A stretch of 64,000 nt of DNA. Origin: Eubacterium sp. (GTDB lineage Bacteria; Bacillota; Clostridia; Lachnospirales; Lachnospiraceae). Numbering within the stretch: the first letter of the stretch is position 1; every line of letters begins with the position of its first letter. The stretch covers positions 2,739-66,738 of the forward strand of contig JAFUPY010000004.1 of the NCBI GenBank assembly GCA_017472565.1, given 5' to 3'. The notes beneath the pieces were generated by a model. It was not told the origin of the DNA. It worked only from the letters and a program-made list of their open reading frames with translations, and did not search any database. Below, one piece after another: positions 32,526-41,816 of this stretch. The translations under genes and the position numbers were made by a program.

Positions 32526-33908
32526 CTACAACGCGGATAAGCTTTTTCGACCGCTCTTATCAGGGATTCCCAGTTCCAATCTGTATTTGGTAACTGTTCT
32601 TCGGGAAATGTGAATGCCCAGTATTTCTAATTGTTCGGAAATTTTATTATCGCTGTAAGGTTTGTTTTTATTTTCTTGTGAAACAATACTTTTTATAGCT
32701 TCTTTGGCTTTGTCTGGTGTTTGGGACTCGCCGGTGGCTGTAAATTGTTTGTTTAATGAAGCGGTTAAAAAGAAATTCAGTGGAAACAACCCCCATGTGC
32801 ACTGTAAATATTTACCCTTCATTGCCCTGCTGATGGTAGATTCATGCAGATCCAACCTGTCTGCCAGGTCTACCAGACGCAGTGGTTTTTTTGATAATGG
32901 CCCATAAAGAAAGAAATCGTGTTGTTCTTCCACAATTGCGTGAGCCACGCGTGACAGGGTAGAAATACGCTGTGTAATGCAGTTCTGTACCCATTCTGCT
33001 TGAGATACTTTCTTTTTCAGGTAATCATAGACTTCTTTGTCTGGAGCATCTTCCATTAAGCTTTTATAATACGCATTGATGTTAAAGGTAGGATACGAGG
33101 ATTCATTAACGAGAATTTCGAATTTTTCTTCCAGTTTTACGACAACAATATCAGGCACAATATAGCGCATCTGTTCCCGGTTGCTAAAGGAACTGCCTGG
33201 TTTTGGATTCATCTGTTTGATTTCATTGCATGCTTCGGTAACTTCATCTAAGGAAACTCCCAGCTTTCTGGCAATAATAGATAAGTGGTTCTTTCCGACG
33301 TCACTTAAATAATGCTTGATAATCTCTTCGGTGACAGGAGAGTAGGCTGGCTTTCTATAAAGCTGTAGCAACAGACATTCAGAAAGATTGCGTGCTCCAA
33401 CGCCAATTGGTTCCAGAGACTGAATTGTTTGCAATATACGCTCTGCGTGTTCATAGGAAATATGTAACTGGCTGGCAATATCAGACAGATCTTCTGTTAA
33501 ATATCCTTTGGAATCTAAAAGAAGGATCATATATTTTAACGCTTTTTGGTCGAAGTCAGAAAACTCTGTAGTAAGTAGCTGAGAAAATAAATATTCGCTG
33601 AGAATTTCTTCCGTTTCATAGGTCCGATGCCATTGTTCTTGAGAATAGTCCGCTTCGCGTTCCTGCTTGTAATAGACTCTATTCTGATAATCGCTGGATT
33701 CCAGCCACTGTAGTTTGCGCTGTATTTCGTCATTGATTGGTTCAGAGGTGGTACCTTTGTCAAAATCAATATCAATAACAGGATTATCTAAGGCAAGATT
33801 TTCAATATAAGATTCTAACTCTATAGAATTCATTTGCAAAATATCTGTGGATTGTAGCATTCGTTGTGACAGCGTTTGCTTTTGAACTAATTCCATTGAA
33901 AGATTCAT
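32526..33908 (-). CDS. rpoN: RNA polymerase sigma-54 factor
   Basis: Q/L-rich region I, EPIGVGARNLSECLLLQL, LHESTISRA HTH, RpoN box SRRTVTKYR. Confidence 0.96.
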   Translation of the reverse strand: MNLSMELVQKQTLSQRMLQSTDILQMNSIELESYIENLALDNPVIDIDFDKGTTSEPINDEIQRKLQWLESSDYQNRVYYKQEREADYSQEQWHRTYETEEILSEYLFSQLLTTEFSDFDQKALKYMILLLDSKGYLTEDLSDIASQLHISYEHAERILQTIQSLEPIGVGARNLSECLLLQLYRKPAYSPVTEEIIKHYLSDVGKNHLSIIARKLGVSLDEVTEACNEIKQMNPKPGSSFSNREQMRYIVPDIVVVKLEEKFEILVNESSYPTFNINAYYKSLMEDAPDKEVYDYLKKKVSQAEWVQNCITQRISTLSRVAHAIVEEQHDFFLYGPLSKKPLRLVDLADRLDLHESTISRAMKGKYLQCTWGLFPLNFFLTASLNKQFTATGESQTPDKAKEAIKSIVSQENKNKPYSDNKISEQLEILGIHISRRTVTKYRLELGIPDKSGRKSLSAL

Positions 33909-34012
33909 AAAAACACCCCGTTTTGCTTCTGTTAATCAAATGGCAGAAGCTCTTTTTTATTGTATCAAATAATGTGTGCAAAAACTATGTGTTAATCCTG
34001 AAAATAATACCC

Positions 34013-34049
34013 AAATCAGAGAAAGCCTGCATTTGACTTTCTCTGATTT
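34013..34049 (-). terminator. Hairpin after abfD
   Basis: AAATCAGAGAAAG...CTTTCTCTGATTT inverted repeat. Confidence 0.65.
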
Positions 34050-34084
34050 TCTAAGAGGTATATGGGAGTAAAAAGGGGTACTAT

Positions 34085-35536
34085 TTATTCATGGATCTTG
34101 GCAATTGTTTTTGCCAATTCTTTTTTCATTTCAAGATTGCCCTGTCTGGAAATCATGATTCTCTGTGCCTGTGGAGAACCTGCTCCGTGCATAGATTCTG
34201 TACGATATCCAACAGCAGCTGTTCCAAGTGTGAGATTTTCAATTAATCTCATGATCTTTAATCTGTTTTCAGTACTTATGTTTGCAACACCTTTGAAATA
34301 TTTATCAATCACTGGTCCGATTACTGGATCTTTAAAATCTTTCTCAGATGGAGCTGTTACCATAAGCCCGCCAGCAAGATCTTCTGCTAAACGTGCAATT
34401 TCGTATGGATAGCGTGTTACGTTTTGTTTACATACGTTAGCGAGTAGCAGGTTAATCAGATAGTTACCGGATGCTGTTTTGCTTCCTTCTGCAGAACATG
34501 CAATACCACAGCAGAATAAAGTTTCGTTCAAGTGTGTCATTTCAATTAATTTATCTTTTACATGAGATGCTTTCTGAGCACCATTGTAATCAGCAGCAAC
34601 GGCAGCAGCGCCAATCAATACATCACCAACACCAACTTTACATCCGCCGTAAGACTGACGATGATAGCCTGCAAATCTTTCGACAAGCATTCCGGAGAAA
34701 TCATATTCGCCGTCCATGAAGATTCTGTCATTTGGAACGAATACGTCATCAAATACAACCAGTGCTTCCATGCCACCAAATTCAGAATTTCCCACATCTA
34801 AGTCACCGCCCTCCAATTTTCTTGTGTCGCAGGACTGACGGCCGATAATCATGAAAATGCCCTCTGCGTCAACTGGAACAGCGAAGGAAACAGCATAGTC
34901 TTTATCTGCTTCGCCCATTGCGATGGTTGGCATAACAATAACTTCGTGAGAGTTAACGATACCGGTTTGGTGTGCTTTTGCGCCTCTTACCACAATACCA
35001 TCCTCTCTACGTTCTACAACGTGAAGGAACAGATCAGGATCTTCCTGTGCGTGAGGCGCTTTGGAACGATCTCCCTTTGGGTCTGTCATTGCACCATCGA
35101 TAGTAAGATCGTTATTCTGACAATAGGTTAAAAATGTTTTAAAGTTATCGTGGTAGTGTGTGCCATGAGCCTGATCGCATTCATATGTAGTGCTGTATAC
35201 TGCGTTGAAAGCGTCCATACCTACACAGCGTTGGAAGCATGCAGCGGTTTTCTGACCACAAAGACGCTGCATCTTTACTTTTTTCATAAGGTCATCTGTG
35301 CTCTGATGAATGTGAGTAAAACGGTTAATTTTTTCTCCTGTAATGTGAGAAGTTGTAACCATCAGATCTTCATGTTCAGGCATCTGTGCAAGATCATAAG
35401 TCATTTTAACGGAGTTCAATGATGGACGAAGAATTGGGTGATCTACTGGATTCTCAATTTTTTCTCCAAACATGTATACCTGCATATTCATTTTTCGAAT
35501 ACTTTCAACGTATTCTTCACCTGTCATAAGTGCCAT
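34085..35536 (-). CDS. abfD: 4-hydroxybutyryl-CoA dehydratase / vinylacetyl-CoA isomerase
   Basis: CFQRCVGMDA, GAMTDPKGDR, GAKAHQTG, YHRQSYGGCKVG ([4Fe-4S] ligands), ESMHGAGSPQAQ; closely resembles clostridial AbfD. Confidence 0.95.
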   Translation of the reverse strand: MALMTGEEYVESIRKMNMQVYMFGEKIENPVDHPILRPSLNSVKMTYDLAQMPEHEDLMVTTSHITGEKINRFTHIHQSTDDLMKKVKMQRLCGQKTAACFQRCVGMDAFNAVYSTTYECDQAHGTHYHDNFKTFLTYCQNNDLTIDGAMTDPKGDRSKAPHAQEDPDLFLHVVERREDGIVVRGAKAHQTGIVNSHEVIVMPTIAMGEADKDYAVSFAVPVDAEGIFMIIGRQSCDTRKLEGGDLDVGNSEFGGMEALVVFDDVFVPNDRIFMDGEYDFSGMLVERFAGYHRQSYGGCKVGVGDVLIGAAAVAADYNGAQKASHVKDKLIEMTHLNETLFCCGIACSAEGSKTASGNYLINLLLANVCKQNVTRYPYEIARLAEDLAGGLMVTAPSEKDFKDPVIGPVIDKYFKGVANISTENRLKIMRLIENLTLGTAAVGYRTESMHGAGSPQAQRIMISRQGNLEMKKELAKTIAKIHE

Positions 35537-39504: not shown

Positions 39505-39843
39505 AAGGATTATGGATTGCGGGAACCACTTTTTGAAGAATTTGGAAATGGATTCAGGGTTGTAATGTACAGAAAAGCGGTCAACAATTTTGAAAAAGGA
39601 GCCGAAAAAGGAGCCGAAAAAGGAGCCGAAAAAGGAGCCGAAAAAGGAGCCGAAAAAGGAGCCGAAAGGAAACAGAAAATTTTAGCATTGTTAATTGATA
39701 ATCCTGAAATAACACAGACCAAAATGGCAGAAGAACGTGATTTGTCAAGAAAACAGGTGCAGAATGCGATGAAAGAATTGCAGAATGATAATTTGATTGG
39801 CAGAGAAGGTTCAAATAGAAGTGGGAAGTGGATTGTGTACTAA
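39505..39843 (+). pseudogene. 3' fragment of an ATP-binding/winged-HTH regulator gene
   Basis: YGLREPLFEEFGNGFRVVMYR, repeat linker, then wHTH NPEITQTKMAE...REGSNRSGKW; no N-terminal domains and no convincing RBS. Confidence 0.65.
39592..39663 (+). repeat. 12-bp perfect tandem repeat, 6 copies (EKGA)
   Basis: GAAAAAGGAGCC repeated six times. Confidence 0.97.
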
Positions 39844-40038: not shown

Positions 40039-40158
40039 TGGTATACCGTGGGTTTAAAAGTGGTGTAAAGTGTGTTTAAAACTGGCACACGTTTATGCCA
40101 TAGATAGATTCATAATCTGCATAACTGAATTACTGCCTTTGCATAAGTACGATATAAT
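40039..40158 (+). promoter_or_regulatory. Conserved upstream boxes and promoter of peptide gene 1
   Basis: TGGTATACC, CTGGCACACG, AGATAGATTCA-N5-TGCATAACTGAATTACTGC; TTACTG-17 bp-TATAAT; duplicated at 41257. Confidence 0.65.
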
Positions 40159-40225
40159 AAACACAACAAGAAGAGATGCGGCATCAGTCGCAAACAAAAC
40201 AGTCTTAGAAAAGGAGGACAATATT

Positions 40226-40324
40226 ATGGCAAGAATGAGTTTATTATACGCAGGTGGATTATTCAGAGGAGCATTAGCATTAAACAGATCTGTCCTCAAA
40301 GTGACACAGTTATTAGTGAAATAA
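40226..40324 (+). CDS. Small cationic peptide 1, 32 aa
   Basis: AAGGAGG RBS; MARMSLLYAGGLFRGALALNRSVLKVTQLLVK; own terminator; paralog at 41440. Confidence 0.85.
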   Translation: MARMSLLYAGGLFRGALALNRSVLKVTQLLVK

Positions 40325-40357
40325 GTAATACCTTATATACAATCTAAACAAAGCATT

Positions 40358-40394
40358 GGAGTCGCAGCAGAAACTGTTGCGACTCCTTTTTTTT
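40358..40394 (+). terminator. Terminator of peptide gene 1
   Basis: GGAGTCGCAGCAG-aaa-CTGTTGCGACTCC followed by T8. Confidence 0.9.
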
Positions 40395-40448
40395 CGTACT
40401 ATAATAGACAGGATACAAGCAAAATAAATAGATAAGGTTGGTATGTAG

Positions 40449-41195
40449 ATGAAAAAAATAACTTATATTTCCCACAGTGGATTTGTAATTGAATTGGACA
40501 AGGTATGTATGTTATTCGACTACTGGAAGGGCGATATGCCAGAGTTTCCGGCAGATAAGGCGCTGGTTGTATTTTCCAGTCATCATCACCCGGATCACTA
40601 CAATCCGGAAATCTGGGATCTGGCGAAAAAATATGAAAACGTGTATTACGTGCTTGGCAGTGATATTGTTGTATCTGAGGAAGACAAGGCGCAGTACGGT
40701 ATTGATGAGGCAACATGGGCGCATACATTGACAGTTAAGGGCAACAAGCACTTTGAACTGCAGGCGGAAAAGGGCGATATTTCCGAAACCGTAGTGATTG
40801 ATACCATGCATTCCACCGATGAAGGGGTGGCTTTTTATGTGACATGTGAAGGGACAGAGATCTTCTATGCAGGTGATCTGCATCTGTGGAAATGGCCAGG
40901 CGAAGATCCGGGCATCAATGACTTTATGCAGAAGTCCTTTGAAAAACGAACCAGATTTTTACAGGATAAAGAGCCGGATATGGCATTTGTGCTGATTGAT
41001 CCACGTATCGAGAACTATATGTTTGAAGGTATGGACTATTATATGGATCTCATGCAGCCAAAGCATATCTTTGTAATGCATATCTGGGATCGTTATGACT
41101 TGATTCAGGAGTACAAGCTTACCCGCAAGGAACATCCAATGGCGGATCGCATTGTGGATATTGCTGATGTGGGACAGGTGTTTGAAGTAGAATAA
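40449..41195 (+). CDS. Metallo-beta-lactamase-fold hydrolase
   Basis: HSGF, SHHHPDH, STDEGV, YAGDL, MH motifs. Confidence 0.88.
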   Translation: MKKITYISHSGFVIELDKVCMLFDYWKGDMPEFPADKALVVFSSHHHPDHYNPEIWDLAKKYENVYYVLGSDIVVSEEDKAQYGIDEATWAHTLTVKGNKHFELQAEKGDISETVVIDTMHSTDEGVAFYVTCEGTEIFYAGDLHLWKWPGEDPGINDFMQKSFEKRTRFLQDKEPDMAFVLIDPRIENYMFEGMDYYMDLMQPKHIFVMHIWDRYDLIQEYKLTRKEHPMADRIVDIADVGQVFEVE

Positions 41196-41213
41196 AAAAA
41201 TATTGTAACATGA

Positions 41214-41245
41214 GAATGGGAAGTGGAAAGACTTCCCGTTTTTTT
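41214..41245 (+). terminator. Terminator after the MBL gene
   Basis: ATGGGAAGT-ggaaag-ACTTCCCGT followed by a T-run. Confidence 0.8.
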
Positions 41246-41256
41246 GGGCTTTTGGC

Positions 41257-41377
41257 TGGTATACCACGCGTCAACAATTCGTATAGCGGGTGGTTTTTTG
41301 CTGGCACACGATGATTCCTAAGACAGATGCAACTTTTGCATTACTGAATTACTGCTTGACAAAATTTATTATATATT
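41257..41377 (+). promoter_or_regulatory. Conserved upstream boxes and promoter of peptide gene 2
   Basis: TGGTATACC, CTGGCACACG, AGACAGATGCA-N5-TGCATTACTGAATTACTGC; TTACTG-17 bp-TATATT. Confidence 0.65.
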
Positions 41378-41439
41378 AATATCAGAAAGAGAGAGGCACA
41401 GCCTGGTAAATATATAAGAATTTTAAGGAGGAACAAATC

Positions 41440-41541
41440 ATGTCAAGAGCATTCAGTTTATTATGTGTAGGTGGATTATACAGAGGCACAGTAGCATTAA
41501 ACAGATCCGTACTGAAGATTGGTGAATTGTTCATTCGATAA
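41440..41541 (+). CDS. Small cationic peptide 2, 33 aa (not in ORF track)
   Basis: AAGGAGG RBS; MSRAFSLLCVGGLYRGTVALNRSVLKIGELFIR; paralog of 40226..40324. Confidence 0.85.
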   Translation: MSRAFSLLCVGGLYRGTVALNRSVLKIGELFIR

Positions 41542-41625
41542 TCATAGAGCTATTTGAAGATACGTTTGCAATACTCAATACCTCACCCCTGGTTTTTCAA
41601 ATATAAAATTAAGAGTTGTAAAAAG

Positions 41626-41666
41626 GAAAGTCGTGATGGCAGATGCTGTCACGATTTTCTTTTTTT
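41626..41666 (+). terminator. Terminator of peptide gene 2
   Basis: GAAAGTCGTGATGGC-agat-GCTGTCACGATTTTC followed by a T-run. Confidence 0.8.
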
Positions 41667-41816
41667 CTTTCTTGAGGAAATTCCTTTGAAACCCATAACA
41701 ATTCTTGCGAAAGCCCCCACAGTGGTGTATGATAGGAATGGTGAGTTCCGTTCAGGAGTCAGCTGTTTTCCATGTGAGATTACAGACAGGGAATACATGG
41801 ATAAAGGGTAAAAAAA

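Follow-up and report, generated by a model that had tools for sequence, protein, structure and literature searches.

The window, as the whole stretch of DNA analysed here is called, comprises 64,000 nucleotides of contig JAFUPY010000004.1 (assembly GCA_017472565.1) from Eubacterium sp. of the Lachnospiraceae; the genome that holds it (G000) is 2.1 Mb in size and 68.6% complete. Two short open reading frames (ORFs) of the window, those of peptide 1 and peptide 2, represent a duplicated gene that encodes a conserved basic peptide; as judged from the sequence, each copy forms a stand-alone transcription unit. They belong to a family of small proteins that is apparently undescribed so far and has a narrow distribution, with members found in four genomes. 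The peptide genes are probably co-regulated with a rare cluster of genes for a molybdenum (Mo) enzyme, Hdr-Flx-like proteins and quinone synthesis. A preliminary description of this DNA, made from its letters, had pointed out the two ORFs but missed this regulatory and genomic link, that is, the phased operator-promoter arrangement and the Mo-enzyme/Hdr-Flx/quinone regulon. Because the same palindrome precedes the peptide genes and the Mo-enzyme genes, a role as an enzyme helper is preferred here to that of an antibiotic or a signal. Tentatively, the peptide might be an accessory amphipathic helix of the Mo-enzyme regulon, which binds or tunes one component at the membrane surface in the manner of AzuC from Escherichia coli.

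The two peptide genes and their family

The two genes have the following features in the window.

40039-40048 (no strand assigned): operator-like palindrome of peptide 1, TGGTATACCG, one mismatch to TGGTATACCA; predicted GntR/FadR-family site
40127-40158 (+): predicted promoter of peptide 1, GAATTACTG, with the non-consensus -35 element TTACTG at 40130-40135, 17 bp, and TATAAT at 40153-40158
40211-40217 (+): ribosome-binding site (RBS) of peptide 1, AAGGAGG, 8 nt 5' of the ATG
40226-40324 (+): ORF of peptide 1, 32 residues, net charge +5
40358-40394 (+): intrinsic terminator of peptide 1, 13-bp stem, T-run
41257-41266 (no strand assigned): palindrome of peptide 2, perfect TGGTATACCA, one of four perfect copies in G000
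41346-41377 (+): predicted promoter of peptide 2, GAATTACTG, with TTACTG at 41349-41354, 17 bp, and TATATT at 41372-41377
41425-41431 (+): RBS of peptide 2, AAGGAGG, 8 nt 5' of the ATG
41440-41541 (+): ORF of peptide 2, 33 residues, net charge +4; predicted single helix, mean pLDDT 77
41621-41672 (+): intrinsic terminator of peptide 2, 20-bp stem, T-run

The translations are those given in the preliminary description, and the paralogy that it noted is evident: each peptide is the sole significant tblastn match of the other in G000 (E ~7e-10). The AAGGAGG sites and the terminators that it assigned to each gene were located at both, the T-run hairpins of the latter spanning 40358-40386 and 41621-41664. 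Peptide 2 is already called as a protein in public collections, without a name, and 31 of the 32 residues of peptide 1 are the same in genome G002.

The family consists of six genes in four Lachnospiraceae genomes: two in G000, two in G002 with the same synteny, and one each in G005 and G350. A hidden Markov model (HMM) built from five members was run over 401 genomes of the Lachnospiraceae and matched six of them; the matches in G000, G005 and G350 are real, whereas those in G393, G222 and G306 were dropped, having no matching start or ORF. A match in G001 was also discarded, as it is off-frame within another gene. A pattern scan of a collection of 185,579 species gave 10 stretches, four loci being the known family genes and six being chance matches. 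None of 19 pattern matches in metagenomes was convincing. One metagenome contig contains a 30-residue ORF with an RBS (L033:4001-4085, minus strand) that bears a weak likeness to the G-x-x-x-L-N-x-x-x-L-K of the family, probably by chance. In agreement with the initial statement that no family could be recognised, the peptides have no match in Pfam or NCBIfam (E up to 1 in both), PHROGs, the PDB sequences or the ESM Atlas features. A search of protein clusters at 90% identity returned peptide 2 alone, that is, itself. The sole match among 1.84 billion representatives (P0012) was rejected, as it is a 490-residue tandem-repeat protein in which five weak stretches sum up. The motifs LNRSVLK, LNRSVMK and LNKSVLK were absent from the literature searched; bioRxiv supplements and large catalogues of small ORFs, which were outside its scope, may list the sequence. 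The core motif was also absent from 12 of the 14 supplements of PMC13376575 (files 7 and 14 were outside the search).

The pattern of conservation indicates that the genes are protein-coding and under selection. Of 28 codons in the alignment, 12, 16 and 2 columns are invariant at codon positions 1, 2 and 3, respectively. The ratio of nonsynonymous to synonymous substitution rates (dN/dS), which had been suggested as a check of frame conservation, is 0.05-0.40 in 13 of 15 pairs, with 0.05 for the orthologues of peptide 1, and 0.75-0.79 in the other two. Identity between G000 and G002 is 93% and 79% in the coding parts compared with 44-61% in the flanks, and the sequences of the untranslated regions (UTRs) and terminators are not conserved. 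A real translated family is thus very probable, and the earlier proposal of an uncharacterised small-protein family is borne out by the selected frames and the stand-alone units. The codon-adaptation percentile (0.80-0.87) was not used: its reference set of seven genes was partly mislabelled and included HdrA.

The invariant residues, in the numbering of peptide 1, are M1, R3, L6, L12, G15, L19, N20, S22, V23, K25, and L29. An AlphaFold2 model, based on an alignment of six sequences, comprises one helix from residue 2 to residue 32 with a pLDDT of 77. The hydrophobic moment, up to 0.68, keeps a constant direction (approximately 114-127 degrees) along the helix, and the invariant polar residues are placed beside the hydrophobic face. 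The peptide is predicted to be a single basic amphipathic helix, and both of these terms had been used in the preliminary description. It should be mentioned that a likeness of the LNRSVL of the peptide to the N-terminus of the Mo enzyme was rejected, since it was outside the top 25 HMM rows among approximately 1,970 ORFs of G000.

The same character could suit a membrane-active effector, similar to a type I toxin or an antimicrobial peptide, that is induced together with Mo-enzyme metabolism. Type I toxins such as Fst, TxpA and Ldr are hydrophobic and basic stand-alone ORFs of approximately 30 residues, which are sometimes duplicated. The present peptides resemble them in charge (+4/+5), in the grand average of hydropathy (approximately 0.6-0.76 in five of the six members), in the strong hydrophobic moment, and in their stand-alone, duplicated genes. 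However, the best 19-residue Kyte-Doolittle mean is only 0.76-1.47 with Arg or Lys at mid-helix, and there is no clear transmembrane stretch. As to the antisense RNA that the preliminary description had proposed to look for, no sigma70-like antisense site was found from -70 to 250 bp beyond the stop codon in any of the six loci. Sequestration of the RBS is inconsistent (unpaired probability 0.29-0.73), and the peptide loci have no Rfam match at the gathering score. Furthermore, the family is absent from the 50,697 phages and 72,556 plasmids searched, no exporter or immunity gene lies alongside any copy examined, and the genes are preceded by a metabolic operator. Invariant Asn, Ser and Gly residues are unusual in a non-specific membrane killer. 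An effector of this kind is considered to be distinctly unlikely.

Operator-promoter architecture and the probable molybdenum-enzyme regulon

All six peptide genes share the predicted promoter GAAT(T/A)AC(T/C)(G/A), 17 bp, TATA(A/T)T. Neither promoter of the window was called by a consensus scan, because the -35 element, TTACTG, is poor and non-consensus. The promoter that the preliminary description had claimed for each gene is nevertheless retained as a prediction, because the -10 element is kept 17 bp after TTACTG, TAACTG or TTACCA in all six homologues. An alternative -35 element, TTGACA, is present at 41356-41361, inside the spacer of the peptide 2 promoter. A sigma54 reading of TGGCAC near the peptide genes was rejected, since the spacing is one base off at copy 1 and the element is missing at copy 2.

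The palindrome TGGTATACCA lies 5' of all six genes, being perfect in four and having one mismatch in two. In the four genes of G000 and G002, 120 or 121 bp separate the palindrome from the end of the -10 element; in the two genes of G005 and G350, the distance is 98 or 99 bp. The difference of 22 bp corresponds to two helical turns, and weaker look-alikes are found at 22-bp steps: in peptide 1, the palindrome is followed by degenerate copies at 40061 and 40083. The regions 5' of peptide 1 and peptide 2 are homologous over approximately 120 bp (81 of 121 columns identical), with a score reached by none of 1000 shuffles. When this operator-promoter architecture alone was used as a query, 5 of the 401 genomes matched, compared with one control match. 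The matches were both window genes, the peptides of G005 and G350, a MoeA-like site of G005, and sites in G396 and G266; the last one is read as chance.

In the MoeA-like site of G005 (L044:1428-1693), two tandem GAATTAC-17-TATAAT promoters are located 5' of a molybdopterin-binding (MoeA-like) gene, the first of them with a palindrome at an out-of-phase distance of 106 bp. LysR genes of G005 and G350 have comparable elements in front of them. The site of G396 (L068:14014-14160) is a 48-residue basic ORF with an N-terminal hydrophobic stretch, a promoter in the 121-bp phase and one close relative (P0013). This ORF, found by the independent promoter-pattern search, is divergent from the Mo-enzyme cluster (menA-like/radical SAM).

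The palindrome 5' of the peptides is of the FadR-subfamily type and is common to genes beside a gene for a GntR protein with an FCD domain. All five perfect palindromes of G002 are placed 5' of peptide 1, peptide 2, a gene for an 84-residue protein, and two Mo enzymes of 1004 and 894 residues. Three of the four in G000 are at peptide 2, the 84-residue protein gene and the 894-residue Mo enzyme, and the fourth is flanked by pyrB and the gene for a sugar-binding protein; palindromes with one mismatch are found at peptide 1, at the 1004-residue enzyme and at a UbiD-like gene, whose product is read as a decarboxylase of the UbiD type. The GntR-FCD gene is divergent from the 1004-residue enzyme in G003 and G123, with the palindrome in between, and the palindrome also precedes the 894-residue enzyme in G001, G005, G123 and G396. 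Per genome, the palindromes are about as numerous as expected by chance; their positions, however, depart from chance. According to the respective papers, the operator of E. coli UxuR has the core TGGTATACCA, identical to the palindrome (PMC8092373), three NanR dimers bind GGTATA repeats cooperatively (PMC8012715), and the control exerted by LldR is sensitive to how its operators are spaced and oriented on the helix (PMC8689689). Unlike these operators, the repeats of the peptide genes are 22 bp apart and degenerate, extend from approximately 100 bp upstream into the -35 element, and occur in Lachnospiraceae. We infer that a GntR protein binds the palindrome.

The loci under the palindrome are as follows.

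G000:C29:343-13585 and C48; L068, L078/L083, L081/L084, L007/L082: rare Mo-enzyme/Hdr-Flx/quinone-synthesis cluster
G000:C29:13331-13585 (-); L084:11950-12192; L116:1471-1731 (-): gene for the acidic 84-residue protein, under the palindrome and tied to the cluster
G000:C95:18556-24528 (-); L100, L102, L113, L131, L139: 894-residue Mo enzyme, Fe-S subunit and downstream genes, with the palindrome 5' in six genomes

The 1004-residue Mo enzyme heads or sits in the cluster, which contains an Fe-S subunit, a HepT-like synthase, HdrABC-/Flx-like genes, UbiE/MenG, a MenA-like prenyltransferase, a radical SAM protein and DUF445; the Hdr-Flx names are a reading of domain matches and gene order. The closest solved relative of this enzyme is the large subunit of pyrogallol hydroxytransferase (PDB 4v4c; E 1e-287, residues 155-1002). 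Unlike that protein, the enzyme has an N-terminal extension of 155 residues, with a weak SCP2-like lead only, and sits with Hdr-Flx and quinone genes. This likeness concerns the co-regulated enzyme, that is, the context, and not the peptide family. The cluster could encode quinone-linked respiration or a new quinone. The literature searches found no paper on the cluster.

The radical SAM gene of the cluster is present in 6 of the 401 genomes, including G396 and all the peptide-positive genomes of this set (G000, G005, and G350). A 301-genome sample of the order yielded no further carrier of this gene. Physical linkage is also seen. The peptide gene of G005 lies between the 84-residue protein gene and the Mo-enzyme operon, and that of peptide 1 in G002 sits after the menA-like, radical SAM and DUF445 genes, approximately 1.2 kb downstream of the radical SAM gene.

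This proximity in G002, together with the divergent position of the small ORF in G396, might suggest that the peptide is the precursor of an exported signal, or a ribosomally synthesized peptide that is post-translationally modified by the radical SAM protein or the prenyltransferase of the cluster. Activator-type promoters with 22-bp repeats are also known in peptide quorum systems. Like double-glycine-leader peptides (class II bacteriocins, ComC/BlpC), the peptides are encoded by small cationic ORFs, and both copies of the window contain GG. However, GG is kept in only four of the six members and is replaced by RT in G005 and GS in G350. The 21 residues after GG, to which the preliminary description drew attention, are indeed found in both window copies, but these replacements deprive them of their value as a clue. 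Double-glycine leaders have 15-30 residues with an acidic LSxxEL-type motif, whereas 9-10 residues with neither an acidic residue nor a motif precede the GG here. Conservation extends over the full length, with no division into leader and core, no Cys, Trp or Tyr is conserved in the family, and a Tat-like RR occurs only in the G005 peptide. The peptides also differ from AgrD, which has a conserved Cys or Ser in its ring, an acidic tail and agrB as a neighbour, in having no Pfam or NCBIfam match at E up to 1, no conserved Cys and a basic C-terminus. At the loci that were read, the genes on either side include no peptidase-containing ABC exporter (no genome-wide search was made). In addition, the radical SAM gene is 14.5 kb away in G005, is unlinked in G350, and occurs without the peptide in G123 and G424. 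Its regular neighbours are the menA-like and DUF445 genes, in clusters with hepT-/ubiE-like genes, and therefore point to an isoprenoid/quinone substrate. A signal or modified-peptide precursor seems unlikely.

The acidic 84-residue protein is represented by 19 clusters in the protein collection and gave three strong matches among 371 genomes (G000, G350, and G396). A match in G035 was dropped on inspection. The protein is present in all four peptide genomes (G000, G002, G005, and G350) as well as in G003 and G396, and it was not found in G123, G001 and G004. In G396, its gene is the last one of the enzyme operon. The model has a beta-beta-alpha-alpha arrangement (pLDDT 80.6) with no clear fold match (best Z 7.2), and the protein belongs to no known family, the CdiI_2 match being sub-threshold only.

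The distribution of this protein bears on the idea that the peptide is a feedback regulator, which would bind the GntR protein, another regulator or the 84-residue protein and would alter transcription instead of enzyme activity. The 84-residue protein accompanies the peptide in every peptide genome, is encoded adjacent to it in G005 and was not found in G123. The monocistronic unit of the peptide with its differently placed, phased operator array would fit such a function, and the invariant polar residues suit a protein contact. On the other hand, the strong and consistent amphipathy points to the membrane surface, the last position of the gene in the G396 operon suits a structural role of the 84-residue protein, and G003 has this protein with no peptide found. 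Feedback regulation is regarded as rather unlikely.

Neighbouring features of the window

One gene lies between the two peptide genes.

40449-41195 (+): MBL-fold metallo-hydrolase, 248 residues (PF13483, E 1.8e-9)

The preliminary description had noted that the two peptides flank it. The gene has a sigma70-like site of its own at 40377-40405. An orthologue is present in all five same-genus genomes, and the peptides are beside it only in the closest relative, G002; the other four orthologues are in a different context with no peptide seen alongside. Since the peptide genes of G005 and G350 also sit elsewhere, away from the MBL gene, a tie of this gene to the peptides is not supported, and it is judged to be a bystander. 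Visual inspection revealed a hairpin with a T-run at 41216-41246, 3' of the MBL gene, which the scan had not called and which would insulate the promoter of peptide 2.

Further upstream, at 39517-39843, lies a truncated winged helix-turn-helix ORF with a 12-bp tandem repeat (six EKGA-type units), which probably represents the remaining end of a disrupted gene. A related strain in sequencing run X1 differs from the window 5' of 39849. At 32526-35536 (-), a sigma54 gene lies beside an HpaB-family (4-hydroxybutyryl-CoA dehydratase-like) gene, and a sigma54-type site, TGGCAC-N5-TTGC, is found upstream (G000:C5:38390).

Possible role of the peptide

The preliminary description had offered four options for the function: a signalling peptide, an antimicrobial peptide, a membrane-active toxin and an enzyme modulator. 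The last of these fits best; the features of type I toxins were not found, and the idea of a 21-residue product is not supported. In the mechanism proposed here, the expression, regulator, localisation, partner and effect of the peptide are deduced from the features described above. The GntR-FCD protein would bind the palindrome and reach the -35 element via the degenerate 22-bp sites, and transcription would follow the inducer of the regulon. The helix would rest on the membrane via the face formed by L12, A16, L19, V23, V26, and L30, while the invariant G15, N20, S22, and K25 would make specific contact with a protein partner. One candidate for this partner is the lipid-binding-like domain at the N-terminus of the 1004-residue Mo enzyme; another is the acidic 84-residue protein, whose distribution is similar to that of the peptide.

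The likely working mode has a precedent. According to the report on AzuC (PMC8915982), this protein, encoded by the AzuCR RNA of E. coli, is a 28-residue amphipathic helix that binds the peripheral membrane dehydrogenase GlpD, making it more active and more strongly associated with the membrane; the peptide is proposed to act likewise. Like AzuC, the peptide is predicted to be a basic amphipathic helix of approximately 30 residues with its own short transcript and a metabolic regulator. The two differ in that AzuC is CRP-repressed and enteric, and no library match links the sequences (no direct comparison was made). Unlike the dual-function RNA of AzuC, the peptide transcript shows no sign of a base-pairing function.

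Several observations weigh against this role or against a close tie to the cluster. The palindrome is not enriched (4 copies versus 2.4 expected in G000, and 5 versus 5 in the control for G005). In several genomes it also lies 5' of transport genes, sugar-binding ABC genes among them, and it is present in G001 and G004, in which the cluster was not found; therefore, the regulon is broader than the cluster. At the enzyme promoters, the palindrome is read as being near the start point, compared with approximately 100 bp upstream at the peptides, and the sign of control may differ. Proteins related to the GntR regulator are present in four of five genomes tested, with two paralogues in G005, and the gene was not found in the incomplete G000. 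Homology of the 48-residue ORF of G396 to the peptide family is unsupported (hhalign probability 1.6%). The peptide gene of G350 is unlinked to the cluster. G003 (82% complete) has the enzyme and the 84-residue protein with no peptide found, and G123 (95% complete) has the whole cluster, the GntR gene and the palindrome, yet no peptide; the peptide is therefore not needed for the core pathway. Finally, the carriers are close kin: the identities of Der are 97, 91, and 87%, and G005 (91%) and G350 (87%) are the closest of seven genomes compared, the tree being unresolved. Therefore, the co-occurrence is in part due to kinship, and no independent test is claimed.

The broader regulon raises the question of whether the peptide is a regulated small protein with a target outside the Mo-enzyme cluster, such as a transporter of the palindrome regulon, or whether the RNA carries the main function. 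The latter might be suggested by the synonymous codons of peptide 1, merely 4 of 29 of which are changed between G000 and G002. However, synonymous rates as low as this are also seen elsewhere (0.12 in etfA; four or fewer changes in 13 of 130 control windows). A dual-function RNA is not supported, and the unconserved UTRs and terminators do not favour it. Both the physical linkage and the pattern of co-occurrence suggest that the target belongs to the cluster. This explanation as a whole is considered unlikely, and the accessory helix of the Mo-enzyme regulon is retained as the working proposal.

Most of the small proteins known to modulate enzymes of respiration or metabolism come from E. coli and Bacillus subtilis. 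The present family provides a testable candidate for such a protein in gut Clostridia, and the cultured species Brotonthovivens ammoniilytica (L020) carries one copy inside the candidate target cluster. For the mining of antimicrobial peptides, the family is a caution, because a cationic amphipathic small ORF looks like a part of a metabolic regulon. Lachnospiraceae are usually regarded as quinone-free fermenters, and the Mo-enzyme/Hdr-Flx/quinone cluster with its GntR regulon is highlighted here in a family of this reputation. More speculatively, and with a low probability, the peptide could be a regulated membrane tether or activity switch of an undescribed quinone-linked electron-transfer module of gut Lachnospiraceae. 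If this is true, a transhydroxylase-like Mo enzyme with a lipid-binding domain, an Hdr-Flx complex and a self-made quinone modified by the radical SAM protein would operate with no membrane-anchor subunit of their own; contact with the membrane would be provided on demand by the peptide, perhaps together with the 84-residue protein.

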